Sequence record: PV455607.1
DNA: 18,099 bases
Strand: one strand, 5' to 3'
Source of the DNA: Enterococcus phage vB_EfaP_2/Chl-5
Made by a program: the position numbers and the translations under genes. Below, one piece after another: positions 44-15,499 of this stretch (the stretch's first letter is position 1; every line of letters starts with the position of its first letter). The notes under the pieces are model-generated. The model was given only the letters and a program-made list of their open reading frames with translations. It made no database searches and was not told where the DNA came from.

Positions 44-72
44 TTTACAAATATGTGATTATATGGTAAACT
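44..72 (+). promoter_or_regulatory. Candidate sigma-A early promoter: TTTACA (44-49), 17-bp spacer, extended -10 TGgTAAACT (64-72)
   Basis: Read directly. It has the same TTTACA-17-TGnTAxAxT architecture as the promoters at 956 and 4576. The -10 is only 4/6 but carries an extended TG. It lies about 30 bp upstream of the RBS of the first gene. Confidence 0.35.
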
Positions 73-101
73 ATATTTGTAAGGTAAAGGAGGTGAATAA
101 A

Positions 102-392
102 ATGAAACTTACAGATGCTACAAATTATATGTCAGAACTATCATCAAACTTAGAAACAATTGATAATTTAATTAAAGATCTTAATTCTTCATACAATATG
201 AATGATCAAGTTCGTGTTTACTTGGAAAAAGATGATGTCGCTCTCGATTATTGGTCAAAATCAAAATCTTTTAATGTTTCGTTTGAAAAAGAAATCATAA
301 TTTCAGCTTTAAAAGATCAAAGAAAAGTATTATACACAGAATTAATAAAGACGAAAGAATTTATCTCAGAACTATTGGAGGAAAAACAATGA
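102..392 (+). CDS. Small early protein, paralog A of a tandem triplet (97 aa from ATG 102; the track ORF begins at ATG 63 without an RBS)
   Basis: The RBS AAAGGAGG (87-94) sits 8 nt before ATG 102. The stop overlaps the next start (ATGA at 389-392). It shares length, MK-start, central D(P/Q)xxR(I/V) motif and I(I/S)ExLEE C-terminus with the next two ORFs. Confidence 0.7.
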   Translation: MKLTDATNYMSELSSNLETIDNLIKDLNSSYNMNDQVRVYLEKDDVALDYWSKSKSFNVSFEKEIIISALKDQRKVLYTELIKTKEFISELLEEKQ

Positions 393-670
393 AAACAAGT
401 TATAAACAATTAGATGAACTAATTTCATTAAAAAATCGTATGAAACACAATAAAACACATCTTAAATACATTACCGAATGTATAGATGAAGTTAAAAAAT
501 CATCGGGCGATCCATACCGTATTAAAGTTTCGTACGACAATCATTATCTTACACTTGTTTCTATCACAAAAGAACAAGTAATAAATAATTTAGAAAAAGA
601 AAAGTTAAAATTAACAACAGCGATTTTAGAAATACAAGATGAAATTATAGAAATTTTGGAGGAGAAATAA
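389..670 (+). CDS. Small early protein, paralog B (93 aa), translationally coupled
   Basis: ATGA overlap with paralog A and TAATG overlap with paralog C. Sequence pattern MKxSxxQxDEL...GDPYRIKVSY...IIEILEEK is shared with neighbours. Confidence 0.7.
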   Translation: MKTSYKQLDELISLKNRMKHNKTHLKYITECIDEVKKSSGDPYRIKVSYDNHYLTLVSITKEQVINNLEKEKLKLTTAILEIQDEIIEILEEK

Positions 671-942
671 TGAAATACTCACTAGAACAAATAGATGAGA
701 TTAGATCAACAATTCTCAGAATTAAATTAAAAAGGGATGAACTGGAGGAACTGTTGGACGAATTAAACGATATTTCTAAAGATCCGGAAGAAAGATATGT
801 TTTATCGTTTTATTACACAAGAGAAGAACGTCTGTTTGAAATTCCGTCAGTAAGATTAATAGATTATTACAACACAAAGATCATAAATCTGAAATCGGAA
901 ATCATATCACTCGAAAAAAGATTACAAAAACTAGTAAAATAA
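670..942 (+). CDS. Small early protein, paralog C (90 aa)
   Basis: TAATG coupling to paralog B. MKYSLEQIDEI...KDPEERYVLSFYY...IISLEKRLQKL resembles B and A. Confidence 0.7.
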   Translation: MKYSLEQIDEIRSTILRIKLKRDELEELLDELNDISKDPEERYVLSFYYTREERLFEIPSVRLIDYYNTKIINLKSEIISLEKRLQKLVK

Positions 943-1063: not shown

Positions 1064-1330
1064 ATGGCTCGAAAACTAATGCAACGAAACGTGACATCAA
1101 CTAAAGCGGAATTCTCAGAAGTTATCGTACAAGACGGAGCGCCAACAATTGTACCATGCGAACCAGTTGTACTAACAGGAAAACTTTCAGAAGAAAAAGC
1201 TTTATCAGCGATCAAACGTAAAAACCCTGATAAAAACGTAGTAGTAACAAATGTTTCACATGAAACAGCGCTTTACACAATGCCAGTCGATAAATTTATC
1301 GAGTTAGCAGACAAATCAACACAAGCCTAA
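1064..1330 (+). CDS. gp6: phi29 p6-like histone-like dsDNA-binding / replication-origin protein
   Basis: Strong RBS AAAGGAGG then ATG. MARKLMQRNVTSTK...KRKNPDKNVVVTNV...LYTMPVDKFIELA parallels phi29 p6 as recalled (MAKMMQREITKTT...KRKYKGNDVTVVSV...YELPVEKFLEVA). Size is 88 aa. Confidence 0.75.
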   Translation: MARKLMQRNVTSTKAEFSEVIVQDGAPTIVPCEPVVLTGKLSEEKALSAIKRKNPDKNVVVTNVSHETALYTMPVDKFIELADKSTQA

Positions 1331-1368: not shown

Positions 1369-1740
1369 ATGGAAATCGTAAAAAGCACATTTGACACACA
1401 AACACCAGAAGGAATGTTACAAGTATTCAATGCCACAAACGGGGCTTCAATTCCGTTACGTAACGCAATTGGCGAAGTACTAGAATTGAAAGACATTCTA
1501 GTTTACTCAGACGAAGTTTCTGGTTTTGGTGGAGCCGAACCATCACAAGCAGAGCTAGTCGCTTTCTTCACAGAAGATGGTAAAACTTATGCTGGTGTAT
1601 CAGCGGTAGCAACAAAGTCAGCTAAAAACCTAATTGATATGATGAGTGCTAACCCTAACATCAAACCAAAAATTTCTTTTGTTGAAGGAAAATCAAACGG
1701 TGGACAAAAATTTGTAAATCTACAAGTGGTTTCACTGTAG
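1369..1740 (+). CDS. gp5: phi29 p5-like single-stranded DNA-binding protein
   Basis: VKSTFDTQTPEGMLQVFNA and the C-terminal KFVNLQVVSL match the recalled phi29 p5 (VKATFDTETLEGQIKIFNA ... FFSLQLSL). It is 123 aa, against 124 aa in phi29. RBS is AGAGGAG. Confidence 0.8.
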   Translation: MEIVKSTFDTQTPEGMLQVFNATNGASIPLRNAIGEVLELKDILVYSDEVSGFGGAEPSQAELVAFFTEDGKTYAGVSAVATKSAKNLIDMMSANPNIKPKISFVEGKSNGGQKFVNLQVVSL

Positions 1741-1795: not shown

Positions 1796-1824
1796 ATTAT
1801 GTTTCTACATTGAGGTGTGTAGAA

Positions 1825-2670
1825 TTGACAGTAAGAATATCAAAGAACGATAGAGCGAAGTTAGAGAAAATCTATGGAAAGTCTAACAAAGCTCGTAAAA
1901 AGTACAACCGTTTAAGACAAAAAGGAGTTGAGGAAAGGCAACTACCAACTGTTCCAACATCAAAGAAAAGACTTATTGACTACGTAAAATCAACAAATAT
2001 GAGTCGTAGTGATTTTAACAAGTTGTTAGATGAGTTGGTAGACTTTGCACAGCCTTACAACGAGAATTACATTTTTGAGATCAACAAGCGAAATGTTGCT
2101 ATCTCAAGAGCGCAAATCAAAGAAGCGCAAATTAAAACAGAGCAAGCTCAAAAAGCAAAAGAAGAACACTACAAAGAGCTTAACGAACTTCAGATTAAGA
2201 AGCCAACAGAAAACACAATTGTCACACCAACGATTTTAACAGAGTTAGGTGCGGACTTACCTTTTCAAGCAATACCAGATTTTAACATTGATTCTTTTAC
2301 TTCTCCAGAAGGAGTTCAGTCTTATTTAGAAAATATAGGAAAACAAGACGAACAATATTTTGATGAAAGGGATCAGCTTTATTATGACAATTTCAGACAA
2401 GCGATGTTTACTATTTTCAATTCAGACGCTGACGACATTGTTCGTTTACTTGATTCCATGGGGCTTGACCTATTTATGAAAACCTATGTTACCAACTTCT
2501 TGGACATGAACCTTGACTACATTTATGATGAAGCAGAAGTACAACAGAAAAAAGAACAAGTTTACAGTAAGATTGCAAAAGTGATCGAATCTGAAACAGG
2601 TGGAGAAGTCCCCTCATATAACCCCACGAAGAACATCACAATTAATTCAGAAACAGGAGAAGAATTATGA
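1825..2670 (+). CDS. gp3: Terminal protein (primer for protein-primed replication); start probably TTG 1825 after RBS GAGGTG (track start TTG 1810)
   Basis: VRISKNDRAKLEKIYGKSNKARKKYNRLRQKG parallels the phi29 TP N-terminus (IRIKDNDKAEYARLVKNTKAKIARTKKKYG, recalled). It is about 281 aa, against 266 aa in phi29. Its stop overlaps the polymerase start (ATGA). There is no in-frame ATG near the 5' end, so a non-ATG start is inferred. Confidence 0.8.
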   Translation: MTVRISKNDRAKLEKIYGKSNKARKKYNRLRQKGVEERQLPTVPTSKKRLIDYVKSTNMSRSDFNKLLDELVDFAQPYNENYIFEINKRNVAISRAQIKEAQIKTEQAQKAKEEHYKELNELQIKKPTENTIVTPTILTELGADLPFQAIPDFNIDSFTSPEGVQSYLENIGKQDEQYFDERDQLYYDNFRQAMFTIFNSDADDIVRLLDSMGLDLFMKTYVTNFLDMNLDYIYDEAEVQQKKEQVYSKIAKVIESETGGEVPSYNPTKNITINSETGEEL

Positions 2671-4388
2671 TTAAGAAATATACAGGCGACTTTGAAACAA
2701 CAACTGATCTCAACGATTGTCGTGTATGGTCGTGGGGCGTATGCGATATAGACAATGTTGACAATATAACATTCGGTTTAGACATTGATTCTTTTTTTGA
2801 ATGGTGCGAAATGCAAGGTAGTACAGATATCTATTTCCACAACGAAAAATTTGATGGAGAGTTTATGCTTTCATGGTTATTCAAAAATGGTTTCAAATGG
2901 AGCAAAGAAACGAAAGAAGAAAGAACATTCTCTACATTGATATCAAATATGGGTCAATGGTATGCTTTGGAAATTTGTTGGGAAGTTAATTACACAACAA
3001 CAAAATCAGGTAAAACGAAAAAAGAGAAAGTTCGAACGATCATCTATGATAGTCTTAAGAAATACCCATTTCCAGTCAAACAAATTGCAGAAGCTTTTAA
3101 TTTTCCTATAAAAAAAGGCGAAATAGATTATACAAAAGAAAGACCTATTGGTTACAAACCGACAAAAGATGAGTGGGAGTATTTAAAGAACGACATTCAG
3201 ATTATGGCAATGGCATTAAAAATTCAATTCGATCAAGGACTAACTCGAATGACTAGAGGAAGTGACGCTTTAGGCGATTACCAAGATTGGGTAAAGACCA
3301 CATATGGTAAATCAAGATTTAAACAATGGTTTCCTATTTTGTCTTTAGGGTTTGATAAAGACTTACGTAAAGCATACAAAGGCGGCTTCACTTGGGTAAA
3401 CAAAGTTTTTCAAGGGAAAGAAATAGGCGATGGCATTGTCTTTGATGTTAACTCTTTGTATCCCTCTCAAATGTATGTAAGACCTTTACCATATGGAACA
3501 CCTCTATTCTATGAGGGAGAATACAAACCGAACAACGACTATCCACTTTACATTCAAAATATCAAAGTAAGGTTTCGTTTAAAGGAGGGTTATATTCCAA
3601 CCATTCAAGTTAAGCAAAGCTCATTATTTATTCAAAACGAATATCTTGATTCGAGCGTAAACAAACTTGGAGTCGATGAATTAATTGATCTTACACTTAC
3701 AAACGTTGATCTTGAGTTGTTCTTTGAACATTACGACATTTTAGAGATACATTACACGTATGGTTATATGTTCAAAGCTTCTTGTGATATGTTCAAAGGC
3801 TGGATCGATAAATGGATCGAAGTAAAGAACACCACTGAAGGAGCTAGAAAAGCGAATGCTAAAGGTATGTTAAATAGCTTGTATGGAAAGTTCGGAACAA
3901 ACCCTGACATTACAGGAAAAGTGCCTTACATGGGCGAGGACGGCATTGTTCGATTGACACTAGGAGAAGAAGAATTAAGAGATCCTGTTTATGTTCCGCT
4001 TGCTAGTTTTGTGACGGCTTGGGGTAGATATACTACCATTACAACCGCTCAAAAATGTTTTGATCGCATTATTTATTGTGATACAGATAGCATTCATCTA
4101 GTAGGAACAGAAGTTCCAGAAGCAATCGATCACTTGGTTGATCCTAAAAAACTTGGTTATTGGGGACATGAAAGCACATTTCAACGAGCAAAATTTATTC
4201 GTCAGAAAACATATGTCGAAGAAATTGACGGAGAATTAAATGTAAAGTGTGCTGGTATGCCAGATCGAATAAAAGAGCTTGTAACCTTTGACAATTTTGA
4301 AGTTGGTTTTTCAAGCTATGGAAAGTTGCTACCGAAAAGAACACAAGGTGGCGTGGTATTAGTAGACACAATGTTTACAATCAAATAA
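2667..4388 (+). CDS. gp2: Protein-primed family-B DNA polymerase (phi29 p2-like)
   Basis: Exo I DFETTT, Exo II HNEKFDGEFM and Exo III YLKNDIQI are present. So are motif A DVNSLYPSQMY, motif B KGMLNSLYGKFG, motif C YCDTDS and KxY RQKTYVEE. At 573 aa it compares with 575 aa in phi29. Confidence 0.95.
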   Translation: MIKKYTGDFETTTDLNDCRVWSWGVCDIDNVDNITFGLDIDSFFEWCEMQGSTDIYFHNEKFDGEFMLSWLFKNGFKWSKETKEERTFSTLISNMGQWYALEICWEVNYTTTKSGKTKKEKVRTIIYDSLKKYPFPVKQIAEAFNFPIKKGEIDYTKERPIGYKPTKDEWEYLKNDIQIMAMALKIQFDQGLTRMTRGSDALGDYQDWVKTTYGKSRFKQWFPILSLGFDKDLRKAYKGGFTWVNKVFQGKEIGDGIVFDVNSLYPSQMYVRPLPYGTPLFYEGEYKPNNDYPLYIQNIKVRFRLKEGYIPTIQVKQSSLFIQNEYLDSSVNKLGVDELIDLTLTNVDLELFFEHYDILEIHYTYGYMFKASCDMFKGWIDKWIEVKNTTEGARKANAKGMLNSLYGKFGTNPDITGKVPYMGEDGIVRLTLGEEELRDPVYVPLASFVTAWGRYTTITTAQKCFDRIIYCDTDSIHLVGTEVPEAIDHLVDPKKLGYWGHESTFQRAKFIRQKTYVEEIDGELNVKCAGMPDRIKELVTFDNFEVGFSSYGKLLPKRTQGGVVLVDTMFTIK

Positions 4389-4400
4389 GGAGGACTAATA

Positions 4401-4571
4401 ATGGATTTATATAAAGCAATATTTATTGTACGTGATGAAGGAACGATTGACGGTTACGCTACCGAACACTTTGTTGATATTTCTTTACACGACTTTGAAG
4501 AAATCTATGGAAAAGAAACACGTGAAATTGAAGCAGTAACATTAGTAAAAACAGGAAATTTCAAAAAATAA
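4401..4571 (+). CDS. 56-aa acidic ORF missed by the ORF track; possible phi29 p56-like uracil-DNA-glycosylase inhibitor (DNA mimic)
   Basis: Strong RBS AAGGAGG (4389-4395) 5 nt before ATG 4401; stop TAA 4569-4571. Translation MDLYKAIFIVRDEGTIDGYATEHFVDISLHDFEEIYGKETREIEAVTLVKTGNFKK has net charge about -5. ISLHDFEEIYGKETREIE resembles the LSLSDFEVLYGNTADEII segment of phi29 p56 as I recall it. It is the same length (56 aa) and sits in the same genomic position, after the polymerase and before the pRNA. Confidence 0.55.
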   Translation: MDLYKAIFIVRDEGTIDGYATEHFVDISLHDFEEIYGKETREIEAVTLVKTGNFKK

Positions 4572-4575
4572 ATTA

Positions 4576-4604
4576 TTTACATCCTTTGCAAAGTATGGTA
4601 AAAT
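4576..4604 (+). promoter_or_regulatory. Promoter TTTACA (4576-4581), 17-bp spacer, extended -10 TGgTAAAAT (4596-4604) driving a short non-coding transcript
   Basis: Read directly. No ORF follows. A strong terminator lies about 160 nt downstream. Confidence 0.55.
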
Positions 4605-4610
4605 ATTCTT

Positions 4611-4767
4611 GTGATAGTTGACAAGAGTCAAATTTGGCGAGATTGGGCGAATGTACACGTGAAATATCGTGCGCTCCCGTTAAGTTATGGACACATAAAC
4701 GTTTTGACCGTCAACCAATCGCAAAAACCTTTTAGGAGTAGCCCTTAAATGTGGCTACTCTTTTTTT
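4611..4767 (+). ncRNA. Candidate packaging RNA (pRNA-like), about 155 nt from predicted TSS to terminator
   Basis: It is a promoter-to-terminator unit without coding capacity at the position adjacent to gene 2 / p56 where phi29 encodes pRNA. Internal hairpins are TTGAC-AAGA-GTCAA (4618-4632), GTTTT...AAAAC (4701-4728) and the terminator stem. Its 5' GTTGAC/GATTGG segments are complementary to its 3' GTCAACCAATC. Confidence 0.45.
4736..4767 (+). terminator. Rho-independent terminator (stem GAGTAGCC 4736-4743 / GGCTACTC 4753-4760, 9-nt loop, T7 4761-4767)
   Basis: Read directly: perfect 8-bp GC-containing stem followed by seven T residues. Confidence 0.75.
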
Positions 4768-4783
4768 GTGTTTCACAGAATTA

Positions 4784-4799
4784 TGTTTCACGTGAAACA
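4784..4799. promoter_or_regulatory. parS: Perfect 16-bp palindrome TGTTTCACGTGAAACA matching the bacterial parS (ParB/Spo0J) consensus tGTTNCACGTGAAACa
   Basis: Read directly. A GTTTCAC half-site lies at 4770-4776. ACACGTGAAAT occurs at 4518-4528 and 4655-4665. The palindrome overlaps the -35 position of the late promoter. Confidence 0.6.
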
Positions 4800-4815
4800 G
4801 TTTTTATGGTATAAT
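4787..4815 (+). promoter_or_regulatory. Late promoter: extended -10 TGgTATAAT (4807-4815) with a poor -35 (TTCACG)
   Basis: Read directly. It lies 24 nt upstream of the scaffold-gene start and heads the whole late operon. Confidence 0.6.
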
Positions 4816-4838
4816 AGAATCAAAAGGAGGTGGAGATT

Positions 4839-5129
4839 ATGGAAATTAAAGAACATGAAGCAATTCTAAATGGTATTCTTGAAAGTGTCACAGACGGTGA
4901 AGCAAGATCAAAGATTGTAGAACATCTTGAAGCATTGCGAGAAGACTACGGAGCAACAACTGAAGCTTTGACATCAGCAAATAGCACACTTGAGAAGTTA
5001 AAGAAAGATAACGAAGCGTTGGTGATTTCAAACTCAAAATTGTTCCGAGAACGAGCGAGCGTAGAACAACCAGAAAATAACGAACCAGAAACAGACCAGA
5101 ATATTACACTAGATGATCTAGGAATTTAA
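4839..5129 (+). CDS. gp7: Head scaffolding protein (phi29 gp7-like); start ATG 4839 (track GTG 4830 lies inside the RBS)
   Basis: AGGAGG 4825-4830 then an 8-nt spacer to ATG. VISNSKLFRE matches phi29 gp7 IVSNSKLFRQ (recalled). It is about 96 aa, acidic and coiled-coil-like. Confidence 0.8.
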   Translation: MEIKEHEAILNGILESVTDGEARSKIVEHLEALREDYGATTEALTSANSTLEKLKKDNEALVISNSKLFRERASVEQPENNEPETDQNITLDDLGI

Positions 5130-5142
5130 GGAGGAAACAAAC

Positions 5143-6471
5143 ATGGCAGATAAAATCACAGAACAAGATGTTCTTAACGCCACAAATGTAGAAACACCAG
5201 TACAATTAATGACTGCTATTTATAATAGCTCATCATCTCTTTTTCAAGCGAACGTACCTATGCCAAATGCAGATAACATTCAAGCGGTTGGTGCTGGGAT
5301 CACACGTTTAGATGTAGTAAAAAATGAATTTATTTCAACTTTAGTTGATCGTATTGGTAAAGTAGTTATTCAATACAAATCATGGCGAAACCCTTTGAAA
5401 ATGTTTAAAAAAGGAAACATGCCTTTAGGTCGAACGATCGAAGAAATTTTTGTTGACATTGCACAGGAACATAAATTCAATCCTGAAGAATCTGTTACAG
5501 GTGTATTTAAACAGGAAGTTCCCGATGTAAAAACATTGTTTCACGAAATTAATCGTGAAGGTTACTACAAACAAACGATCCAAGAAGCATGGTTAGAAAA
5601 AGCATTTACTTCATGGGATAATTTCAATAGTTTCGTTGCTGGTGTAATGAATGCTTTATACACAGGCGATGAAGTAAGTGAATTTGAATACACGAAATTG
5701 TTAATAGCAAACTACCAAGAAAAAGAGTTATTCAAAGAGATCGAAATTGGCGAAATTAATGAATCAAATGCAAAAAATTTTATTCGTAAGATCAAAGCAA
5801 CATCAAACAAACTTGAATTTATGAACAATTCTTACAATGCACAAGGTGTAAGAACATCAACAGCTAAAGCCGACCAATACGTTATTATTGACGCTGACAC
5901 TGACGCTACAATTGACGTTGACGTTTTAGCAGCGGCATTCAATATGAGTAAAACTGACTTTGTAGGACACAAAATCGTTATTGATGAGTTTCCTAAAAAA
6001 GAAGGCGAAGATTCGTCAAATATTGTGGCAGTTATTGTAGATAGTGAGTGGTTTATGATCTATGACAAATTGTACAAAACAACAAGTCTATACAACCCTG
6101 AAGGCTTATATTGGAATTATTGGTTGCACCACCACCAACTATATTCTACTTCTCAATTCGGGAACGCCGTTGCTTTTGTTAAATCAGCAACAAAACCTGT
6201 CACAAAAGTTGCTTTTGCAAGTGCAACAGCTACTGTTGTTAAAGGTTCATCTAAAGATATCGCATTGACATTTACACCAGCAGAAGCAACAAACCAAGAA
6301 GGAGAAGTAGTTTCATCAGCACCAACATTGGTTAAGGCAACCGTAAAACAAACAGCAGGTAAAGCGACTGGCGTAACCGTAGAAGGCTTAGAAGTCGGTC
6401 AATCATTAGTAACATTCACAGCTATCGGAGGTCAACAAGCAACGGTTCTTGTTACGGTTACTTCTGACTAA
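5143..6471 (+). CDS. gp8: Major capsid protein (phi29 gp8-like) with C-terminal Ig-like Big_2 domain
   Basis: [15 protein letters not shown]...[21 protein letters not shown] parallels phi29 gp8 (FITSLVDRIGLVVIR...[21 protein letters not shown]). The C-terminal 80 aa are rich in T/V/A beta-strand residues, typical of Big_2. It is 442 aa, against 448 aa in phi29. Confidence 0.95.
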   Translation: [442 protein letters not shown]

Positions 6472-6482
6472 GGAGGACAATT

Positions 6483-8297
6483 ATGGCAAGACGGTATACA
6501 CATGTAAAATTGTTGACTAACGTGCCTTTTGATAACACTTATGCACACACAAGATGGTGTAAAACTCAACAGGAACAGGAATCGTACTTTAATTCGTTTC
6601 CTGTTCTAAACGAGAATACTGATTGTTCTTATCAAAGAGATACACAACTCGGTGGAGTTTTTAGAGTAGATAAACACAAAGACGCTTTATATGCTTGTAA
6701 CTATCTCATCTTTAAAAACGAAGAAACTTATCCTAGTAAATGGCAGTATGCCTTTGTTACAGATATTGAATATAAGAACGACAACACAAGTTTCGTTACT
6801 TTTGAAATTGATGTTTTACAAACTTATCGCTTTGATATTGGTATACGAGAAAGTTTCATTGCAAAAGAACATCCTCAACTTTATTATTCGAACGGAATAC
6901 CTTTCATTAATACAATTGAAGAGTCGCTTGATTACGGTAGAGAATACACAACAACAAATGTAACAACTTTTCATCCTAACGATGGAGTCAATTTTCTTGT
7001 TATTCTAACAAGTGAAGCAATGCCAGTGGGAGATAAGGAAGATAAATCAGGAGGATCAATTGTCGGAGGGCCATCACCTTATTCCTATTATTTACTTCCT
7101 CTCAATTCAAGTGGCGAGGTATACAAACCAAATGGTGCAGGTAATGCTAACTTTGGAGAGTACATGGCGTTTCTTACAACGAAAGAACCTTTTTTAAATA
7201 AGATAGTCGGGATGTATATAACGTCATATACAGGTATACCATTTATTGTGGATCATGCTAACAAAACAGTAAGGTATAATGCAGGAGGTTCGTATAAGAT
7301 TACACTCCCAACCTATGCCAGTGATCCAACAGGAACAATGAAAACATTCGCTTTCTTTTGTGTGAAAGAGGCAAGAACATTTGTACCTAAAAGAATTGAT
7401 CTTGTAGGAAATGTGTATAACTACTTTAGAGAAAGTTTTCCATTTAATGTTAAGGAATCTAAACTATTTATGTATCCTTATTGTTTACTAGAAATTACAG
7501 ATACTAAAGGACATGTTATGACTATCAGACCCGAATATCTTACAGGTGGTAAATTGAGTGTATACGTAAAAGGTTCGTTAGGCATTTCTAATAAAGTCAT
7601 GATTGAACCAATTGATTATGATGTAACTAACTCAAGCATTATTACTAATTTAAGTGACAAGATGTTAATCGATAATGACCCTAACGATGTAGGAGTTAAA
7701 TCTGACTACGCTGCTGCATTTATGCAAGGAAATAAAAACTCCTTGATTGCTCAAGAACAAAACATACGAAATACCTTTAGGCACGGTATGGGAAACAGTG
7801 CAATGAGTACAGGTGGAGCAATCTTTTCTGCATTGGCCAGTGTCAATCCATTTGTTGGTTTGACTAACATTATGGGAGCAGGACAACAAGTAAACAACTA
7901 TGTTGCAGAAAAAGAAAACGGATTGAATCTCTTAGCAGGCAAAGTGGCAGATATTGAAAATATCCCAGATAATGTCACACAGCTAGGATCAAACTTATCT
8001 TTCACAATGGGAAACTTTCAAAATTATTATCAATTGCGATTCAAACAAATTAAATATGAGTATGCTACAAGACTGAATCGTTACTTCTCAATGTATGGCA
8101 CAAAGAGCAATCGAGTAGCTACACCAAACTTACAAACAAGAAAATCATGGAATTTCATTAAATTAAAAGAGCCAAATATTGTAGGTACAATGAGTAACGA
8201 TGTGTTAACGCGAGTGAAACAAATTTTTAGTGCAGGAGTTACCCTTTGGCATACGAACGATATTTTAAATTATAACCAAGACAACGGAGATGTGTAG
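6483..8297 (+). CDS. gp9: Tail knob / distal tail protein (phi29 gp9-like)
   Basis: HVKLLTNVPFDNTYAHTRW parallels the recalled phi29 gp9 N-terminus (VRILADVPFSNDYKNTRWF). It is 604 aa, against 599 aa in phi29. RBS is AGGAGG. Confidence 0.85.
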   Translation: MARRYTHVKLLTNVPFDNTYAHTRWCKTQQEQESYFNSFPVLNENTDCSYQRDTQLGGVFRVDKHKDALYACNYLIFKNEETYPSKWQYAFVTDIEYKNDNTSFVTFEIDVLQTYRFDIGIRESFIAKEHPQLYYSNGIPFINTIEESLDYGREYTTTNVTTFHPNDGVNFLVILTSEAMPVGDKEDKSGGSIVGGPSPYSYYLLPLNSSGEVYKPNGAGNANFGEYMAFLTTKEPFLNKIVGMYITSYTGIPFIVDHANKTVRYNAGGSYKITLPTYASDPTGTMKTFAFFCVKEARTFVPKRIDLVGNVYNYFRESFPFNVKESKLFMYPYCLLEITDTKGHVMTIRPEYLTGGKLSVYVKGSLGISNKVMIEPIDYDVTNSSIITNLSDKMLIDNDPNDVGVKSDYAAAFMQGNKNSLIAQEQNIRNTFRHGMGNSAMSTGGAIFSALASVNPFVGLTNIMGAGQQVNNYVAEKENGLNLLAGKVADIENIPDNVTQLGSNLSFTMGNFQNYYQLRFKQIKYEYATRLNRYFSMYGTKSNRVATPNLQTRKSWNFIKLKEPNIVGTMSNDVLTRVKQIFSAGVTLWHTNDILNYNQDNGDV

Positions 8298-8311
8298 GAA
8301 GGAGGAATAAG

Positions 8312-9292
8312 ATGAGTAGACGAAAAGGTGCAGGACTTGCTAGAAATAACCGTTATACAGCAAAAAGCAGACCTTATCCAAACGAACCCTATTCAAGTGA
8401 TGTAGAAGAAATCAGCTACTATGAACATTATCGTAGACAACTCACGCTCCTTACGTTTCAGTTGTTTGAATGGGAAAATTTACCGAAATCAATTGACCCT
8501 CGATATTTAGAAATTGCATTACACACAAATGGTTATCTCGGTTTCTTTAAAGATCCTACACTAGGGTTCATGGTTTGTGCAGGAGCAGAAGATGGCCAAA
8601 TCGATCATTATCACAATCCTATTTTCTTTACAGCAAATGAAGCAATGTATCACAAGAGATATCCTGTTTTAAGATATGATGATGATGATGACAAATCAAA
8701 ATGTATCATGTTGTATAACAATGATTTGAAAGTTCCTACACTACCGAGTCTTCATCGGTTTGCTTTGGATATGGCAGACATAAACCAGATATCACGAGTG
8801 AATCGAAGAGCGCAAAAAACACCTGTAATTATTCAAACTGATGAAAAGAAATACTTCTCATTGCTACAAGCTTATAACCAAATTGACGAAAATAATCAGG
8901 CTGTTTTTGTGGATAAAGATATGGAGTTTGACAAAGCTTTTAATGTGTGGCAAACAAATGCACCTTATGTAGTGGATAAACTAAGATCAGAATTGAACGA
9001 AGTATGGAATGAAGTCTTAACTTTTCTAGGTATCAACAATGCCAACGTAGATAAGACTGCACGTGTACAAACATCAGAAGTCTTATCTAACAACGAACAG
9101 ATTGAAAGCTCAGGAAACATCTTGTTAAAATCAAGAAAAGAGTTTTGTGATCGTGTAAATCGTGTCTTTGGCGATGAACTTGACGGAAAGATTGACGTGA
9201 AGTTTAGAACGGACGCGGTGCGACAATTACAACTAGCAGCAGGTCAATCAAAAAAAGACCAAATGAGTGGAGGGTTGCCAAGTGCTACTTAA
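8312..9292 (+). CDS. gp10: Head-tail connector / upper collar (portal, phi29 gp10-like)
   Basis: [21 protein letters not shown] parallels phi29 gp10 ([21 protein letters not shown]). Also [23 protein letters not shown] and FLGI.NAN match gp10. It is 326 aa. Confidence 0.92.
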   Translation: [326 protein letters not shown]

Positions 9293-10118
9293 ACGTTATA
9301 TTGAAAGTTTCACTTATTACCAACCTGAATTATCTCGAAAAGAACGTATTGAAGTTGGCAGAAAACAATTGTTTGATTTTGATTATCCATTTTATGACGA
9401 AACAAAACGAGCAGAATTTGAAACAAAATTTATCAATCACTTTTACTTGAGAGAGATAGGATCAGAAACGATGGGATCATTTAAGTTTAATCTTGACGAG
9501 TATTTAAATCTAAATATGCCCTATTGGAATAAGATGTTCCTATCAAATCTTGAAGAGTTTCCGATTTTTGATGATATGGACTATACCATTGATGAGAAAC
9601 AGAAATTGTTAAATGAGATTGATACAAACATCAAAGCGAATCGGGATGAGTCAAAAAATCAAACGAAACAAGTAGATCAAACAGACAACAGAAACAAAAA
9701 TACCCGTGACACAGGAACAACCGATTCTTTCTCAAGAAACACGTATACAGACACTCCTCAAAAAGATTTGAGAATTGCTAGTAATGGCGACGGAACAGGT
9801 GTCATCAATTATGCAACAAATATCACAGAAGATTTGAGTAAAGAAACAACAAGTTCTACAGGCGTTGAAACAAACAACGACAAAACAAATCAAAACACAC
9901 GAAGCAATGCTTCTGAAAAAGAAACAAAGAACACAGACATTAATAAAGATCAAAATCAAACCAAAGATACGATTACACGATATAAAGGTAAAAAGGGAAA
10001 CACTGATTATGCTGACTTACTCGAAAAATATCGCAAAAGTGTTTTGAGAATTGAGAAAATGATCTTTAGAGAAATGAACAAGGAAGGCTTATTTCTCCTT
10101 GTTTATGGAGGGAGGTAA
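9282..10118 (+). CDS. gp11: Lower collar protein (phi29 gp11-like) with a long polar low-complexity insertion; start probably GTG 9282 after GGAGGG (track GTG 9267)
   Basis: The position after the connector and the 279-aa size (293 aa in phi29) fit gp11. It overlaps the gp10 3' end. Residues about 125-245 are a T/N/K/D/Q-rich, apparently disordered segment. Confidence 0.7.
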   Translation: MLLKRYIESFTYYQPELSRKERIEVGRKQLFDFDYPFYDETKRAEFETKFINHFYLREIGSETMGSFKFNLDEYLNLNMPYWNKMFLSNLEEFPIFDDMDYTIDEKQKLLNEIDTNIKANRDESKNQTKQVDQTDNRNKNTRDTGTTDSFSRNTYTDTPQKDLRIASNGDGTGVINYATNITEDLSKETTSSTGVETNNDKTNQNTRSNASEKETKNTDINKDQNQTKDTITRYKGKKGNTDYADLLEKYRKSVLRIEKMIFREMNKEGLFLLVYGGR

Positions 10119-10123
10119 CAGCA

Positions 10124-10675
10124 ATGGTAGATTTTAACCCCGACAAGCGGTTTGACGGTTTACCCTCAGTATTCAAAGAACGTTTTAGTAAATATCCTCA
10201 TACGGAGTACAGATACGAATTACTATTAGATGAAGAAGTATCGGCTTTAATTGCCTATCTGAATGAGATTGGCGCTTTAGTTAATGATATGAGTGGTTAT
10301 TTAAATTACTTTATCGAACATTTTGTAGAGAAGTTAGAAGAGATCACAACTGACACACTCAAAAAATGGTTATCTGACGGTACACTAGAAAGTTTAATCA
10401 ACGATACTGTGTTTGCTAATTATATCAAAGAAATCAAAAGACTACAAATCTTGGTTGCTGAAACACGTGCTAACAGTGTGAATATTCTTTTGACAAAAAA
10501 TAAACCCGATGTTGCTGATGATCGAACATTTTGGTTTAAAATACAACGTGATAATACCGATTATGGGAATGATCCTATTGATACGTTACGTATTGTTGCA
10601 ATCAATAAAGTTAGTGGCTGGAATACCGCTACAGGAGATATTTATCTTAACATTAAAGGAACGGAGGGTGTATAA
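10124..10675 (+). CDS. Hypothetical structural protein (183 aa), no phi29 counterpart recognised
   Basis: RBS GGAGGGAGG and tight packing in the late operon; TAATG coupling to the next gene. Confidence 0.6.
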   Translation: MVDFNPDKRFDGLPSVFKERFSKYPHTEYRYELLLDEEVSALIAYLNEIGALVNDMSGYLNYFIEHFVEKLEEITTDTLKKWLSDGTLESLINDTVFANYIKEIKRLQILVAETRANSVNILLTKNKPDVADDRTFWFKIQRDNTDYGNDPIDTLRIVAINKVSGWNTATGDIYLNIKGTEGV

Positions 10676-10971
10676 TGGCAGACATTAGAACACAACTAAC
10701 AAGCGAAGATGGATCAGACAATTTATTTCCAATTTCAAAAGCCGTTAATATTATGACTAATAGCGGCAAGAATGTAGAAGGAGAATTGGGTACACTCAAA
10801 CAAAATAACGAAACAATGAATACGTCAGTTCAAAATGCGGTAGTTAATGCCAATCAAGCAAAAGATTCTGTAGCTGAATTAAATGTGAATGTTGGTAAAC
10901 TAACCAATCGAATAACAACATTAGAGAGTACAGTCGATAGTATTGACGGTATTCGTTATGTAGAGGTGTAA
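10675..10971 (+). CDS. Fibre-like protein 1 (98 aa) with conserved N-terminal module and coiled-coil tail
   Basis: N-terminus MADIRTQLTSEDGSDNLFPISKAVNIM is shared with the next two genes. C-terminal heptad-like NAVVNANQAKDSVAELNVNVGKLTNRITTLE. Confidence 0.65.
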   Translation: MADIRTQLTSEDGSDNLFPISKAVNIMTNSGKNVEGELGTLKQNNETMNTSVQNAVVNANQAKDSVAELNVNVGKLTNRITTLESTVDSIDGIRYVEV

Positions 10972-10972
10972 T

Positions 10973-11377
10973 ATGGCAGATAAAAATATTCAACTGAAGG
11001 ATAAAGATCAAAATCGTTTAATGCCTGTAACCATTGCTAAAAATGTTCTAACAGGCGACTCTAATCTTGAATTAGTTAATGCTGAAATAAGAGGTAACGC
11101 TAGTGAAGCTAAAACCCTTGCACAACAAGCTAAAGAAACTGCTGATGGATTGTCAACAGAAATTGAAACAGCAACTTCAACCGCAAATCAAGCGTTGACG
11201 AAAGCTGGTACAGCACAACAAACCGCAGAACAAGCGAAAACAGCAGCGAACAGTGTCAGTTCAGTTGCAACGACAGCTAAAAACACAGCTGATTCAGCAA
11301 AACAAACTGCAACTGATCTTGCTGTTCGAGTAAGCAGTTTAGAGAACACAGCAATACAATATACTGTATTACCGTAG
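10973..11377 (+). CDS. Fibre-like protein 2 (134 aa), A/T/Q-rich fibrous segment
   Basis: N-terminus MADKNIQLKDKDQNRLMPVTIAKNVL. Low-complexity AKTLAQQAKETADGLSTEIETATSTANQALTKAGTAQQTAEQAKTAANS repeat-like shaft. Confidence 0.65.
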   Translation: MADKNIQLKDKDQNRLMPVTIAKNVLTGDSNLELVNAEIRGNASEAKTLAQQAKETADGLSTEIETATSTANQALTKAGTAQQTAEQAKTAANSVSSVATTAKNTADSAKQTATDLAVRVSSLENTAIQYTVLP

Positions 11378-11388
11378 GAGGAAAAATA

Positions 11389-11811
11389 ATGGCAAATAAA
11401 AATATTCAAATGAAGGATAGCAATGACAATAATTTATATCCAATTGTTCGAGCAGAAAACTTGTTAGATTTAACTAGTCGTGCTGAATTGACAATGACAA
11501 ATTGTCAATTATATAACGCTAGTGATAAAACAAATGCAATCTCTTATCTCGGCGCAGTAGGTATGATCGAAGGTATGGTAAAGTTTACTGAAAGTTTAAC
11601 AAATCCAGTGATTACAACATTACCAGAAGGTTTTAGACCGATAAGAACAAAGCGTATTGGTTGTTTCGCAAAATACTACACACCAAATCCAGCAAATACA
11701 AAAGAAATGATTTATGTATCAATCACACCTGATGGTAGAGTAACCGTAAATGACAATGTAGGTAAAATCGAATATCTATCATTAGATAATTGTGTTTTCC
11801 CTCTAAAATAA
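11389..11811 (+). CDS. Fibre-like protein 3 (140 aa), globular C-terminal domain
   Basis: N-terminus MANKNIQMKDSNDNNLYPIVRAENLL. Its first 30 nt are nearly identical to the first 30 nt of the gene at 10973. Confidence 0.65.
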   Translation: MANKNIQMKDSNDNNLYPIVRAENLLDLTSRAELTMTNCQLYNASDKTNAISYLGAVGMIEGMVKFTESLTNPVITTLPEGFRPIRTKRIGCFAKYYTPNPANTKEMIYVSITPDGRVTVNDNVGKIEYLSLDNCVFPLK

Positions 11812-11821
11812 GGAGGTTCCT

Positions 11822-13156
11822 ATGGAAGAACGAATTGATATTCAAATGAACAAAATGAAAGAAGAAAATCAAAAGAATTACCTATTGCACCCTGAAACGA
11901 ACCCGACACAGGTTGTTTTTGATGAAACATTACATGGAAATAAAAATCAAGAGAGTTTCAACGAATTTGTTGACAAAAGAAAAATGACAACTACAATCGA
12001 TGTAAGTGCTTATGGCGTTATTGCAGATGGTGTAACAGATTGTACACCAATCTTAAATAAACTACTCGAAGAAAAAAGCGAAATGGGTATCACTTTTTAT
12101 TTTCCTCCTTGTGAACGTGATTCATATTATCGCTTTGCTAACACAATTGAATTAAAGCGTGATGTTCCAGTAGTGACTTTCTTAGGATCAGGAGAAACAA
12201 CATTAAAGTTTGAAACAATGACGGCATTTAATGTAAACATTGAAAGCTTCAATATTGATGGGTTTGCATTATGGTTGCCACAAGGCGCTCAAAGCGGTAA
12301 AGGAATTTTCTTTAATGATACTCGAAATTACAACCGTTTTGACTTTGATTTGTTTGTTCGCAACTGTACTTTAAATGAAGGAACATATGTTGTTGTTGCT
12401 AGAGGTAGAGGGGTTACCTTTAAAAATTGTCTATTCTCTAATATCTCTCAAGCAATCATCAAAACAGCTTTTCCAGATGTAAACAGTATGTGGCAAGGGA
12501 ACGATATTAATACTAGGGGTACAGGTTTTAGAGGTTTCTTTGTGAAAAACAACCGTATTCACTTTTGTACAGCGATCATTATCGACAATGAGGATGATTA
12601 TCAGAATGTCATTAATTTCTGTGAAATTTCTGGTAACACAATCGAAGGTGGCGTAAGTTATTATCGAGGATATGCACATAACTTGCATGTCCAAAACAAC
12701 AACCATTTTCTAGCATACGGAAATAGAAACGCTTTGTTTGAGTTTCAAGATGTGGATCAAGCTTATATTGATGTAGATGTTTATTCTCGTAACTCGAAAG
12801 TAGAGGGAATGAATAGTACAGCTATTTCACGTTTAGTTGTTGTTTACGGACATTACCGAAACTTAAGGATTACAGGAAAGTTATATCGTTGTCAAGGAAA
12901 TGTTATCACTTTATATGGTGGTGGCGTTAATTTCTATTGTGATCTAATGGCACAAGAAGCGCCTTTGACAGACGGATATCGGTTTATTCAAACAGCGGAC
13001 AAACGAGTCAACTATGACGGTTTTGTTGTTCGTGGACTGTCTAATTCAACAAAAGTAAATACACCAATGATCTATAAAGCACCTCAGACTGTTTTCTATA
13101 ATCGTAAAATCGATCATGTGCTAACAGGTCCAAATGCAAGTAATGTATATAACTAG
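11822..13156 (+). CDS. gp12: Pre-neck appendage / tailspike with pectate-lyase-type right-handed beta-helix (phi29 gp12 position, half its size)
   Basis: VSAYGVIADGVTDCTPILNKLL matches the YGAKGDGVTDDT signature of Pectate_lyase_3-type tailspikes. Repetitive N/G/V beta-helix-like composition. The position before the gp13-like gene fits. Confidence 0.7.
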   Translation: MEERIDIQMNKMKEENQKNYLLHPETNPTQVVFDETLHGNKNQESFNEFVDKRKMTTTIDVSAYGVIADGVTDCTPILNKLLEEKSEMGITFYFPPCERDSYYRFANTIELKRDVPVVTFLGSGETTLKFETMTAFNVNIESFNIDGFALWLPQGAQSGKGIFFNDTRNYNRFDFDLFVRNCTLNEGTYVVVARGRGVTFKNCLFSNISQAIIKTAFPDVNSMWQGNDINTRGTGFRGFFVKNNRIHFCTAIIIDNEDDYQNVINFCEISGNTIEGGVSYYRGYAHNLHVQNNNHFLAYGNRNALFEFQDVDQAYIDVDVYSRNSKVEGMNSTAISRLVVVYGHYRNLRITGKLYRCQGNVITLYGGGVNFYCDLMAQEAPLTDGYRFIQTADKRVNYDGFVVRGLSNSTKVNTPMIYKAPQTVFYNRKIDHVLTGPNASNVYN

Positions 13157-13167
13157 GAGGATATGAG

Positions 13168-14205
13168 ATGGCAACTCTTACAAATGAACAAATAGCTAGA
13201 GGACAAACAATCGCTAAAATACTTTCAAAATATGGCTATAATAAAAATTCACAAGTAGGAGTTGTCGCCAATCTCCATTGGGAATCGGCTGGTTTGAACC
13301 CGAACATCAATGAACATGGTGGGGGCGGATATGGGTTAGGTCAATGGACACCTAAAAGCAATCTTTATCGCCAGGCTCAAATTTGTGGGTTGTCTAATGC
13401 TAAAGCTGAAACGTTGGAAGGTCAAGCAGAGATTATCGCTCAAGGAGATAAAACAGGTCAATGGATGGATAATACGACTGTTTCTTCTGCAGGTTATACT
13501 AACCCGCAGACACTTTCAGCATTTAAACAATCTGCAAATATTGATGTTGCTACAATTAATTTTATGTGTCACTGGGAACGTCCTGGTATACTTCATATCG
13601 AAGAAAGACTTGATCTTGCACAAGCTTATAGTAAGCATATTGATGGTAGCGGTGGCGGTGGCGTAAAACGTTGCTATGGAACACCAATTAAGAATACAAA
13701 TCTTGATCCTAAAAGTTTCATGAGTGGACAACTTTTTGGCACGCATGCAGGAAATGGCAGACCAAATAATTTCCATGATGGACTGGACTTTGGGTCGATT
13801 GATCATCCAGGCAATGAAATGATCGCTTGTTGCGATGGTACAGTAACACACGTTGGAACAATGGGTGCATTAAGAGCATATTTTGTGATAAACGACGGCG
13901 CTTACAATATCGTTTATCAAGAATTTAGTTATAACCAGTCAAATATAAAGGTAAAAGTTGGCGACAAAGTTAAGAACGGACAAGTTTGCGCAATACGTGA
14001 CGCTGATCATTTACATTTAGGTTTTACTAAAAAAGATTTTATGACTGCGTTAGGATCTTCTTTCATAGACGATGGAACATGGGAAGACCCTTTGAAGTTT
14101 TTAGGACAATGTTTTGGAGATGGAGATAATGACGATAACAATAAGGATAAAAATGATCTTATTTATCTATTGCTATCCGATGCCTTGAATGGTTGGAAAT
14201 TTTAA
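13168..14205 (+). CDS. gp13: Tail-associated peptidoglycan hydrolase (phi29 gp13-like): N-terminal lysozyme-like domain plus C-terminal M23 peptidase
   Basis: HDGLDF (HxxxD) and HLHLG (HxH) zinc-ligand motifs of M23/LytM are present. N-terminal WESAGLNPN...GLGQWTP is lysozyme-like. Glycine linkers GGGGYG and GSGGGGV separate the domains. Confidence 0.8.
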   Translation: MATLTNEQIARGQTIAKILSKYGYNKNSQVGVVANLHWESAGLNPNINEHGGGGYGLGQWTPKSNLYRQAQICGLSNAKAETLEGQAEIIAQGDKTGQWMDNTTVSSAGYTNPQTLSAFKQSANIDVATINFMCHWERPGILHIEERLDLAQAYSKHIDGSGGGGVKRCYGTPIKNTNLDPKSFMSGQLFGTHAGNGRPNNFHDGLDFGSIDHPGNEMIACCDGTVTHVGTMGALRAYFVINDGAYNIVYQEFSYNQSNIKVKVGDKVKNGQVCAIRDADHLHLGFTKKDFMTALGSSFIDDGTWEDPLKFLGQCFGDGDNDDNNKDKNDLIYLLLSDALNGWKF

Positions 14206-14220
14206 TAAGGAGAAAAAGGT

Positions 14221-14613
14221 ATGATAGAATATATCACACAATGGTTAGCAGATGATAACCATATGGTTTATGGTTTGATTATATGGTTAATGGTTGCAAT
14301 GATTATCGATTTTGTGTTAGGTTTTACAATTGCCAAATTTAACAAGGAAATCGAGTTTAGTAGTTTTAAAGCTAAAGCAGGTATCATTGTTAAGGTGGCA
14401 GAAATGGTTTTAGTGGTTTACTTTATTCCTGTAGCAGTAAAATTCGGTGCAGTAGGCATTACAATGTATGTAACAATGTTGGTTGGTTTAATTTTATCAG
14501 AAATTTATAGTATACTAGGGCATATTTCAACCATAGACGATAACAACAATTGGACTGATTATATTAAGAAGTTTTTAGACGGAACACTCAACAGAAAGGA
14601 CGATATTAAATGA
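14221..14613 (+). CDS. gp14: Holin (three predicted transmembrane helices; phi29 gp14 position and size)
   Basis: Hydrophobic segments are VYGLIIWLMVAMIIDFVLGFTIA, IIVKVAEMVLVVYFIPVAV and AVGITMYVTMLVGLILSEIYSILG. It has a charged C-terminus, is 130 aa and has an ATGA overlap with the lysin. Confidence 0.8.
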   Translation: MIEYITQWLADDNHMVYGLIIWLMVAMIIDFVLGFTIAKFNKEIEFSSFKAKAGIIVKVAEMVLVVYFIPVAVKFGAVGITMYVTMLVGLILSEIYSILGHISTIDDNNNWTDYIKKFLDGTLNRKDDIK

Positions 14614-15488
14614 TGAATGGTATTGATATTTCTAGTCATCAAACAGGAATTGATCTTTCAAAAGTTCCATGTGATTTTGTAATTATTAAAGCTACAGGAG
14701 GTAAAGGTTATGTCAATCCTGATTGTGATCGAGCATTTCAACAAGCGTTAGCGTTAGGAAAGAAAATTGGTGTCTATCACTTTGCACATGAAAAAGGTTT
14801 AGAAGGTATACCAGAACAAGAAGCTGCATTTTTCTTAAAGAATATTAAAGGTTACATTGGCAAAGCAATTCTAATTCTTGACTTTGAAGGATCAAACCAA
14901 AAAGATTCAGCATGGGCGAAAGCATTTCTTGATTATGTGTACAATCAAACAGGTATTAAACCATGGTTTTACACGTATACAGCAAACCTCAATACAACAG
15001 ACTTTTCAAATGTAGCTAAAGGCGATTATGGATTGTGGATTGCGGAATATGGTAGGAATTTACCTCAAGGATATAGTCAACCTAGTCCACCACAAACAAA
15101 TAACTTTCCAGTTGTCGCTTGTTTTCAATATACGAGTAGCGGTCGTCTATCGGGCTATAATGGAAACCTTGATTTAAATGTATTTTATGGCGATCGAGAA
15201 ACATGGGATTTATATGTGGGTAAAAAATCAGATCAAGTTGTTGCTCCTGAAAATAAAATATTTGACGCTACAAGTGATGAGTTTATTTTCACCTTGACAT
15301 CAGGTAGCACAAGCGTATTCTATTTTGACGGAAACACGATCTTTGAATTGTCTGATCCCACACAACTCGATCATATTAGAGGAACATACAATCATGTTCA
15401 TGGAAAAGAAATTCCCTCAATGGTGTGGACACCTGAACAGTTTGATATTTATTTAAAAATGTATGATAAGAAACCAGTGTATAAATAG
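14610..15488 (+). CDS. gp15: Endolysin: N-terminal GH25 muramidase plus unassigned C-terminal wall-binding region
   Basis: MMNGIDISSHQ...DFVIIKATGG..YVNPDCDRAFQQA...GVYHFA is the GH25 (Cpl-1-like) signature. The last 90 aa have no recognisable SH3 or choline-binding repeats. Confidence 0.85.
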   Translation: MMNGIDISSHQTGIDLSKVPCDFVIIKATGGKGYVNPDCDRAFQQALALGKKIGVYHFAHEKGLEGIPEQEAAFFLKNIKGYIGKAILILDFEGSNQKDSAWAKAFLDYVYNQTGIKPWFYTYTANLNTTDFSNVAKGDYGLWIAEYGRNLPQGYSQPSPPQTNNFPVVACFQYTSSGRLSGYNGNLDLNVFYGDRETWDLYVGKKSDQVVAPENKIFDATSDEFIFTLTSGSTSVFYFDGNTIFELSDPTQLDHIRGTYNHVHGKEIPSMVWTPEQFDIYLKMYDKKPVYK

Positions 15489-15499
15489 GAGTGTATAGT

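Follow-up and report, generated by a model that had tools for sequence, protein, structure and literature searches.

Phage phi29 carries five parS sites, through which the host partition protein Spo0J (ParB) segregates the phage genome into the prespore (Meijer et al. 2005, as related in PMC2731898). A scan of the phi29 genome recovered four identical copies of TGTTTCACGTGGAACA, located at genes 10/11, 15 and 17 and behind gene 16 and none of them at the A3 late promoter, and a scan of phage Nf recovered two sites; the original prediction, a note made from the letters of the DNA analyzed here, was thus right that phi29-family phages carry Spo0J-binding sites. The palindrome TGTTTCACGTGAAACA is identical to the consensus with which PMC10197239, citing Livny 2007, searched whole genomes for parS; in all 12 gut bacteria covered there, among them Enterococcus faecalis (KB1), that study found ParABS homologues and 1–10 parS sites apiece. 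Here, we analyze parS sites in an 18,099-bp stretch of DNA, the window, from Enterococcus phage vB_EfaP_2/Chl-5 (PV455607.1), which represents nearly the whole genome of an Athos-like podophage of the phi29 family that infects Enterococcus faecium. A perfect parS overlaps the predicted late promoter of this genome, and the overall best explanation, to which we assign a probability of roughly 0.55, is that host ParB nucleates on cis parS sites of a phage that has no ParB of its own.

The parS elements of the window are as follows.

4784..4799, no strand: parS-1, the perfect palindrome TGTTTCACGTGAAACA, a 16/16 match to the parS consensus
1252..1267, no strand: parS-2, TGTTTCACATGAAACA, with one central mismatch (15/16), inside the p6 gene, where it is read as N-V-S-H-E-T
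4769..4776, plus strand: an exact 8-nt parS arm, TGTTTCAC, which follows immediately on the T-run of the terminator of a probable packaging RNA (pRNA) and precedes parS-1 by 7 nt

At the composition of the window, 6e-6 perfect and 3e-4 one-mismatch sites are expected by chance, and one of each is observed; the chance expectation for the half-site TGTTTCAC within 40 bp of parS-1 is 0.003. In terms of sequence, both sites are of the chromosomal type, parS-1 fitting TGTTNCACGTGAAACA at 16 of 16 positions and parS-2 at 15, so that the claimed identity of the palindrome at 4784–4799 with the ParB/Spo0J consensus holds in full. It is not, as had been stated, a single site, given parS-2 and the half-site. 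The GTTTCAC half-site described at 4770–4776 is real, but it is longer, comprising 8 nt (4769–4776), and lies 7 nt upstream. No further site with up to 3 mismatches occurs in the window beyond parS-1 and parS-2. Two more isolated exact 8-nt arms are found in the late genes, at 5537–5544 (plus strand) and 8214–8221 (minus strand), bringing the isolated exact arms in the window, including that at 4769, to three, compared with 0.73 exact arms of any kind expected. The chance expectations, together with the 16 genomes and 29 family sites described below, place the elements beyond chance and indicate maintenance by selection; that the palindrome is a genuine chromosomal-type parS is well supported at the level of sequence, and ParB would probably bind the phage sites.

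The same 16-mer recurs across the phi29 family. An IMG/VR scan for the exact 16-mer matched at least 120 contigs, ~25 of which are phi29-like podophages with 22–50% polymerase identity, many with 2–5 perfect sites. As a control for bias, phi29-like contigs were gathered by polymerase profile alone, in two samples (158 contigs, ~2 Mb).

IMG/VR sample: 78 contigs, 1.03 Mb; 17 perfect and 12 one-mismatch sites; 11 contigs with a perfect site
GTDB genome assemblies sample: 80 contigs, 0.95 Mb; 12 perfect and 3 one-mismatch sites; 6 contigs with a perfect site

The polymerase-profile matches in the GTDB sample are mostly mis-binned contigs of metagenome-assembled genomes (MAGs), and the sample was used as a source of sequence, not for host assignment. 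About 0.0003 perfect and 0.016 one-mismatch sites are expected in the IMG/VR sample, and a like expectation was assumed for the GTDB sample, given its similar size. Together, the two samples hold 29 perfect parS sites versus ~0.0006 expected, an enrichment of roughly 50,000-fold; because these contigs were not selected for parS, the hijacking of host ParB appears to recur in the phi29 family. About 10% of such unselected contigs carry perfect sites, often 2–5 per genome. Examples of loci with perfect sites are L015, L022, L056/L143, L074, L103, L152 and L231, with A-rich and T-rich flanks (AA-parS-TT). Another contig, L109, has two perfect sites (132–147 and 11579–11594) placed symmetrically near both ends with matching flanks, and these apparently lie inside inverted terminal repeats. 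The mismatch-tolerant scan of the genome and its relatives, proposed at the outset as a check, thereby yielded both the second site of the window and the recurrence in phi29-like contigs.

Outside any open reading frame (ORF) of ≥75 aa lie 24 of the 44 sites in these two samples, compared with 11.5% of bases (P = 5e-12), and the sites typically stand 0–15 nt before a ribosome-binding site, in short spacers. Among one-mismatch sites (n=25), the change falls at half-site position 5 nine times, at position 8 five times and at position 1 five times; this spectrum covers the ‘N’ of the Bacillus consensus, the place of variation among phi29’s own sites, and the parS-2 variant, whose C8>T change is the second commonest one-mismatch form (5/25 phage sites). 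An exact half-site is found within 40 bp of 17 of the 85 distinct phage parS sites, where 0.01 is expected per site, so that the half-plus-full arrangement of the window is typical. The small ORFs of the window have no homologues in the distant parS-bearing phi29-like phages, and Pfam and PHROG scans of ten small window ORFs detected neither a ParB-like nor a helix-turn-helix (HTH) protein; the common binder is therefore most simply the universally conserved ParB of the host. No parS site was found in the Enterococcus Copernicusviruses (Efae230P-4, Efmus1) or in Actinomyces phage Av-1. The literature searched contained no report of parS as a family-wide feature of phi29-like phages, and parS and Spo0J go unmentioned both in the Athos paper and in a 2024 review of phi29-like phages.

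Within the Athos-like genus, parS-1 and its half-site are unchanged in 16 genomes (90.7–99.96% pairwise identity), which answers the question of whether the palindrome is conserved in relatives, while the flanking positions 4780, 4800 and 4801 vary around it. parS-2 is likewise unchanged, also at six third-codon positions, wherever the genomes extend over it (15 genomes).

The surroundings of parS-1 lie in a compact spacer, whose elements are given below.

4572-4829: the spacer itself, 258 bp, between a 56-aa ORF and the late operon
4576-4604, plus strand: strong upstream promoter of the pRNA, TTTACA - 17 nt - TGgTAAAAT (promoter scan)
4611..4768, plus strand: probable pRNA, ~158 nt (fold energy, compensatory changes), the left border of the parS/promoter spacer
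4733-4768, plus strand: intrinsic terminator of the pRNA
4787..4815, plus strand: predicted sigma-A-type late promoter, TTCACG (4787-4792) - 17 nt - TGgTATAAT (4807-4815) (promoter scan)

The spacer thus reads, in order, promoter, structured RNA with terminator, half-site, parS-1, TG-extended -10, ribosome-binding site and start codon of the scaffold gene. The predicted late promoter has 10 of 12 matches with a TG-extended -10, and the palindrome supplies its -35-like hexamer TTCACG together with most of the 17-nt spacer; with a predicted start near 4822, parS-1 spans about -38 to -23, with its centre at ~-30.5. The site had been said to sit on the -35 of the late promoter, which agrees with its overlap with the -35 region of the promoter predicted at 4787–4815. 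The -10 block TATGGTATAATA (4805–4816) is a near copy of the -10 block TATGGTAAAATA (4594–4605) of the upstream promoter, a duplication that supports the predicted late promoter as a real sigma-A promoter. It is the only promoter predicted for the morphogenesis and lysis operon, with a strong extended -10 and no dedicated activator, and for this reason repression is the expected effect of parS-1 occupancy: judging from its position, a protein bound at parS-1 would exclude RNA polymerase. The original prediction's suggestion that the site couples late transcription to ParB occupancy is plausible in view of this geometry. The overlap of parS-1 with the predicted core promoter is of the kind seen in operators of the KorB-OB type, and the absence of a p4 activator gene sets the promoter apart from the p4-dependent late promoter of the phi29 A3 type, which has no -35 and is preceded by p4 sites. 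An RNA-level role for the palindrome was ruled out, since the pRNA terminator precedes it and the predicted start follows it.

The pRNA region has a fold energy of -45.5 kcal/mol (z = -2.9), and two of its 52 predicted pairs show compensatory changes (7 relatives). Rfam returned no family for 4572–4830 at gathering or E-value thresholds and did not recognise the pRNA. The region is unannotated in Athos, and a 45-aa ORF is called there in CUB-FM. This RNA also bears on the additional copies of CACGTGAAA, of which the window holds 4, compared with 0.26 expected, all within 4519–4797; none of 200 shuffles reached 4. Outside the parS-1 region, copies include 4519–4527 and 4656–4664, embedded in an identical 11-mer, ACACGTGAAAT, that occurs twice, at 4518–4528 and 4655–4665, 137 nt apart. 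Both had been put forward as half-sites. The copies are real, but the one at 4656 was rejected as a ParB half-site, being variable and forming the stem and loop of a pRNA hairpin: it reads CACGTGAGA in several relatives and CGCGTG in L006, where an A>G change is offset by a T>C change 13 nt downstream that keeps the hairpin stem. Because it varies and the compensatory change preserves the hairpin, this copy is taken as part of the probable pRNA and not of a ParB array. The second compensatory pair falls in the long terminal helix of the pRNA. The copy at 4519 is conserved in all relatives and lies inside the conserved coding sequence of the 56-aa ORF.

The remaining features of the window place these elements in the genome.

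63-942, plus strand: three small ORFs (ORF list)
1064-1330, plus strand: p6 histone-like protein (Pfam p6)
1369-1740, plus strand: single-stranded DNA-binding protein (SSB), followed by a terminator (gene order)
1810-2670, plus strand: terminal protein (gene order)
2667-4388, plus strand: protein-primed DNA polymerase, 56% identical to the phi29 polymerase
4401-4571, plus strand: the 56-aa ORF after the polymerase gene (gene order)
4840..5129, plus strand: scaffolding protein (gp7-type), the first late gene (Athos and p63-3 annotations; Pfam Scaffolding_pro on an orthologue; ORF list)
4840 to 16531, plus strand: late operon, from the scaffold gene to the gp16 packaging ATPase, including holin and endolysin
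right end, minus strand: five small ORFs (ORF list)

The window is 95.7% identical to Enterococcus phage CUB-FM and 91.2% to phage Athos (Salasmaviridae). It is also ~95% identical to pIN-1-11_03, a linear 18-kb record deposited as an E. faecium plasmid, and, across the 61% of the window that aligns in one place, to p63-3, likewise linear and deposited as an E. faecium plasmid. The p63-3 record (NZ_CP019991.1) is 18,099 bp long, like the window, with ~95.5% identity and a different start point; the equal length is apparently a coincidence. Early and late blocks are collinear in the window and divergent in phi29 and in all recovered outgroups (51–58% polymerase identity: L130, L132, L133, L136, L007). 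No p4 late activator gene lies between the SSB and terminal-protein genes, and no small ORF has a Pfam or PHROG match to p4. A ‘distant’ blastn search with the region matched only the two close relatives, and phage, plasmid and IMG/VR collections yielded no intermediate relatives, the next ones having polymerases no more than 58% identical and a divergent layout like that of phi29; the promoter region therefore has no homologous counterpart for comparison. In Pfam, the 56-aa ORF matches p56, the uracil-DNA-glycosylase inhibitor of phi29, but only weakly (E = 0.013) and short of the curated cut-off. The capsid region (5143–6471) is one 442-aa ORF in the window, CUB-FM and the plasmid records, and is annotated in Athos (L001 5146–6473) as two genes, ‘head morphogenesis’ and major capsid, possibly from a frameshift in an Ion Torrent assembly.

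In the proposed mechanism, dimers of E. faecium ParB would recognise parS-1 with its half-site and parS-2, bind CTP, close into clamps and slide along the DNA. ParB accumulates only on DNA that is closed or capped by protein (PMC7053999). Covalent terminal proteins would cap both ends of the 18-kb linear genome; we infer that ParB clamps could not run off these ends, so that a ParB partition complex may form on the phage DNA. This complex would tie the phage genome to the ParA/SMC segregation machinery of the host, so that both daughters of an infected cell that has not yet lysed could inherit the genome, in a carrier or pseudolysogenic state. At the same time, ParB on parS-1 would exclude RNA polymerase and keep the morphogenesis and lysis operon in check for as long as the ratio of genome copies to ParB is low; replication would multiply the parS copies, titrate ParB and ease the repression. 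In P. aeruginosa, chromosomal ParB represses promoters with an adjacent intergenic parS (PMC7022226). The parts of this proposal differ in strength. A role of the phage parS in segregation or persistence is close to an even prospect, and repression of the predicted late promoter by ParB is a tentative suggestion that falls somewhat short of even. A bolder version, in which host ParB serves both as a borrowed partition protein and as a borrowed ‘lysogeny repressor’ and the phage, which has no integrase, repressor or par genes but one parS on the late/lysis promoter and one in the early region, lives in E. faecium as a stably inherited linear plasmid capped by terminal protein, seems doubtful; it is similarly doubtful that virions are produced only once parS copies titrate ParB or ParB/CTP levels fall, and speculative that this amounts to a third, host-factor-gated lifestyle between lytic and temperate, which ~10% of phi29-like phages may share.

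A carrier state would have a counterpart in the occurrence of these genomes in bacterial isolates. The linear records pIN-1-11_03 and p63-3 come from rectal-swab isolates from Germany and Korea, and the authors of the Athos paper recognised two 18-kb E. faecium ‘plasmids’ as Athos-like phages that lack integrase and repressor, and suggested that such phages might persist by pseudolysogeny or in a carrier state (PMC11210271). Contigs of roughly 18 kb that represent Athos-like genomes are present in E. faecium assemblies and SRA runs by the hundreds (loci L296–L305), as counted from protein index clusters of P0121/P0123/P0151. One p6 variant is found in 440 index blocks, 341 of them with 10–20 kb contigs, from NCBI assemblies and SRA runs; SSB variants are found on 234, 135, 45 and more contigs labelled E. 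faecium, and E. faecium assemblies at NCBI annotate a p6 protein identical to that of the window. Complete genomes of lytic phages without integrase or repressor (‘BAPS’) have been reported to recur in assemblies of purified isolates, which was read as a carrier-like state (PMC12768965); that study proposes no molecular mechanism and does not mention parS.

Several points weigh against the proposal that host ParB nucleates on the phage sites. A search with B. subtilis Spo0J gave only Bacillus proteins among the 120 matches listed, and no E. faecium ParB; the literature searched held nothing specific on E. faecium parB or parS and covered E. faecalis alone (PMC10197239). As noted above, the parS sites of phi29 are not at its late promoter, and the late promoter of the window is itself a prediction. 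Other parS-bearing phi29-like phages show no preferred distance between parS and the -10, and a shortage of non-coding sequence may by itself account for the promoter overlap; for want of a fixed spacing, a family-wide ‘ParB operator’ was no longer considered. Conservation within the genus is weak evidence when taken alone, with a probability of no change of ~0.19 for parS-1 and ~0.24 for the third-codon positions of parS-2, and is not decisive because the genus is too uniform. Finally, the parS-less Enterococcus Copernicusviruses, whose capsid cluster takes its names from phage isolates alone and has 1–18 contigs per member, offer a contrast in prevalence that points towards persistence of the Athos-like phages, but this contrast involves two genera only and is confounded by sequencing effort and host species.

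Other explanations share part of this evidence. The phage sites could act as a ParB sink: as replication brings the genome to high copy, the amplified parS would titrate ParB from the host origin, drawing off ParB-dependent SMC loading or ParA control and disturbing host chromosome organisation to the advantage of the phage, with persistence and promoter control incidental. Competition of this kind would be expected to favour sites that are usually perfect and often clustered or multiple, up to 4–5 per genome, and present in many phi29-like lineages whatever the gene context, as they are. The Athos-like genus, however, has only two sites, the data reveal no benefit from disabling ParB, whose loss is mild in many bacteria (PMC7022226), and the plasmid-like prevalence in isolates would be left unexplained; both the sink and its effects on SMC or ParA appear unlikely. 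Still less likely is a functionless hitch-hiker, a relic parS from recombination with a host or from an ancestor that infected spore formers, whose overlap with the -35 is coincidence. The statistically indecisive conservation within the genus and the lack of a shared parS/-10 geometry across phages fit such a relic, as does the lack of a site in the nearest outgroups (51–58% polymerase identity, different layout) in the stretches recovered, some of them partial, because of which the origin of the parS cannot be traced. Against a relic stand a perfect 16-mer, a one-mismatch copy and an exact half-site with chance expectations of 6e-6, 3e-4 and 3e-3, the retention of both sites in all 16 genomes, and the roughly 50,000-fold recurrent enrichment and intergenic bias (P = 5e-12) in phi29-like contigs.

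Two further explanations had been offered in the original prediction itself. One makes the palindrome and half-site the operator of a phage-encoded late regulator that replaces p4, with a small early protein binding a sequence that merely resembles parS. The phage needs a temporal switch but lacks a p4 homologue; among the small ORFs, eight are without assigned function and a ninth (4401–4571) has only the weak p56 match, and a centre at ~-30.5 is a typical operator position. Yet a 16/16 match to the universal parS would then be an accident, the second copy is intragenic and remote from promoters, the identical 16-mer is carried by distant phi29-like phages in which none of the small ORFs are found, and no DNA-binding domain, whether of the ParB or the HTH type, was detected among the small ORFs, all of which makes such an operator very improbable. 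The other, spore entrapment, in which ParB drags the phage genome into the forespore, is the role documented for phi29 (PMC2731898), and may well apply to gut phi29-like contigs whose hosts are probably clostridia. The window phage belongs to the Athos/CUB-FM group, whose host is E. faecium. Enterococci do not form spores, and to our knowledge the genus Enterococcus lacks Spo0A; spore entrapment is inapplicable to the window phage because its host does not sporulate, and we give it next to no credence here.

The use of parS by phi29 has hitherto been read as a sporulation-specific trick. A perfect site in a phage of a non-sporulating host, together with the parS in ~10% of phi29-like contigs, would suggest that small lytic phages recruit host ParB for some more general purpose. 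Nucleation of host ParB on the phage sites would also offer a testable mechanism for the ‘virulent’ Athos-like genomes found as 18-kb linear ‘plasmids’ in clinical E. faecium assemblies, with parS as the first cis-element candidate for lytic phages found in bacterial assemblies. Athos-like phages are under evaluation against vancomycin-resistant E. faecium (VRE), and a ParB-dependent carrier state and ParB-gated lysis, if true, would bear on therapeutic efficacy and safety.

Among known systems, phi29 is the closest in kind. It belongs to the same family, shares a polymerase with 56% identity, the terminal protein, p6, SSB, pRNA and gp16, and likewise carries cis sites of nearly the same sequence for a chromosomal ParB of the host, without a ParB of its own. 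In phi29, parS is used together with Spo0A boxes for entry into the forespore, whereas the host of the window phage does not form spores; the window phage, in turn, differs in having one site on the predicted late promoter, no p4 activator, and a collinear rather than divergent layout. The linear plasmid-prophage N15 resembles the proposed state in another respect: its linear phage genome persists outside the chromosome at low copy number by means of single, scattered palindromes that bind a ParB-family protein, the four dispersed inverted-repeat centromere sites IR1–4 bound by SopB (PMC7205306). N15, however, is temperate, encodes its own SopA/SopB and repressor, and has covalently closed hairpin ends, whereas the window phage has neither partition proteins nor repressor, would depend entirely on host ParB, and has ends capped by terminal protein. 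For promoter control, the nearest parallels are KorB-OB of IncP-1 plasmids, P. aeruginosa ParB at the intergenic parS3/parS4 and S. pneumoniae ParB near the com operon, where a palindrome bound by a ParB-family protein at or beside a promoter lowers its activity (PMC7022226, PMC5521831 and PMC4488948). In those operators, the replicon that encodes the ParB regulates itself; by analogy, a virus would here borrow the ParB of its host to control its late and lysis genes. Finally, Athos-like genomes, like the ‘BAPS’ (PMC12768965), recur in isolate assemblies, and differ in that a concrete cis element can be offered here.

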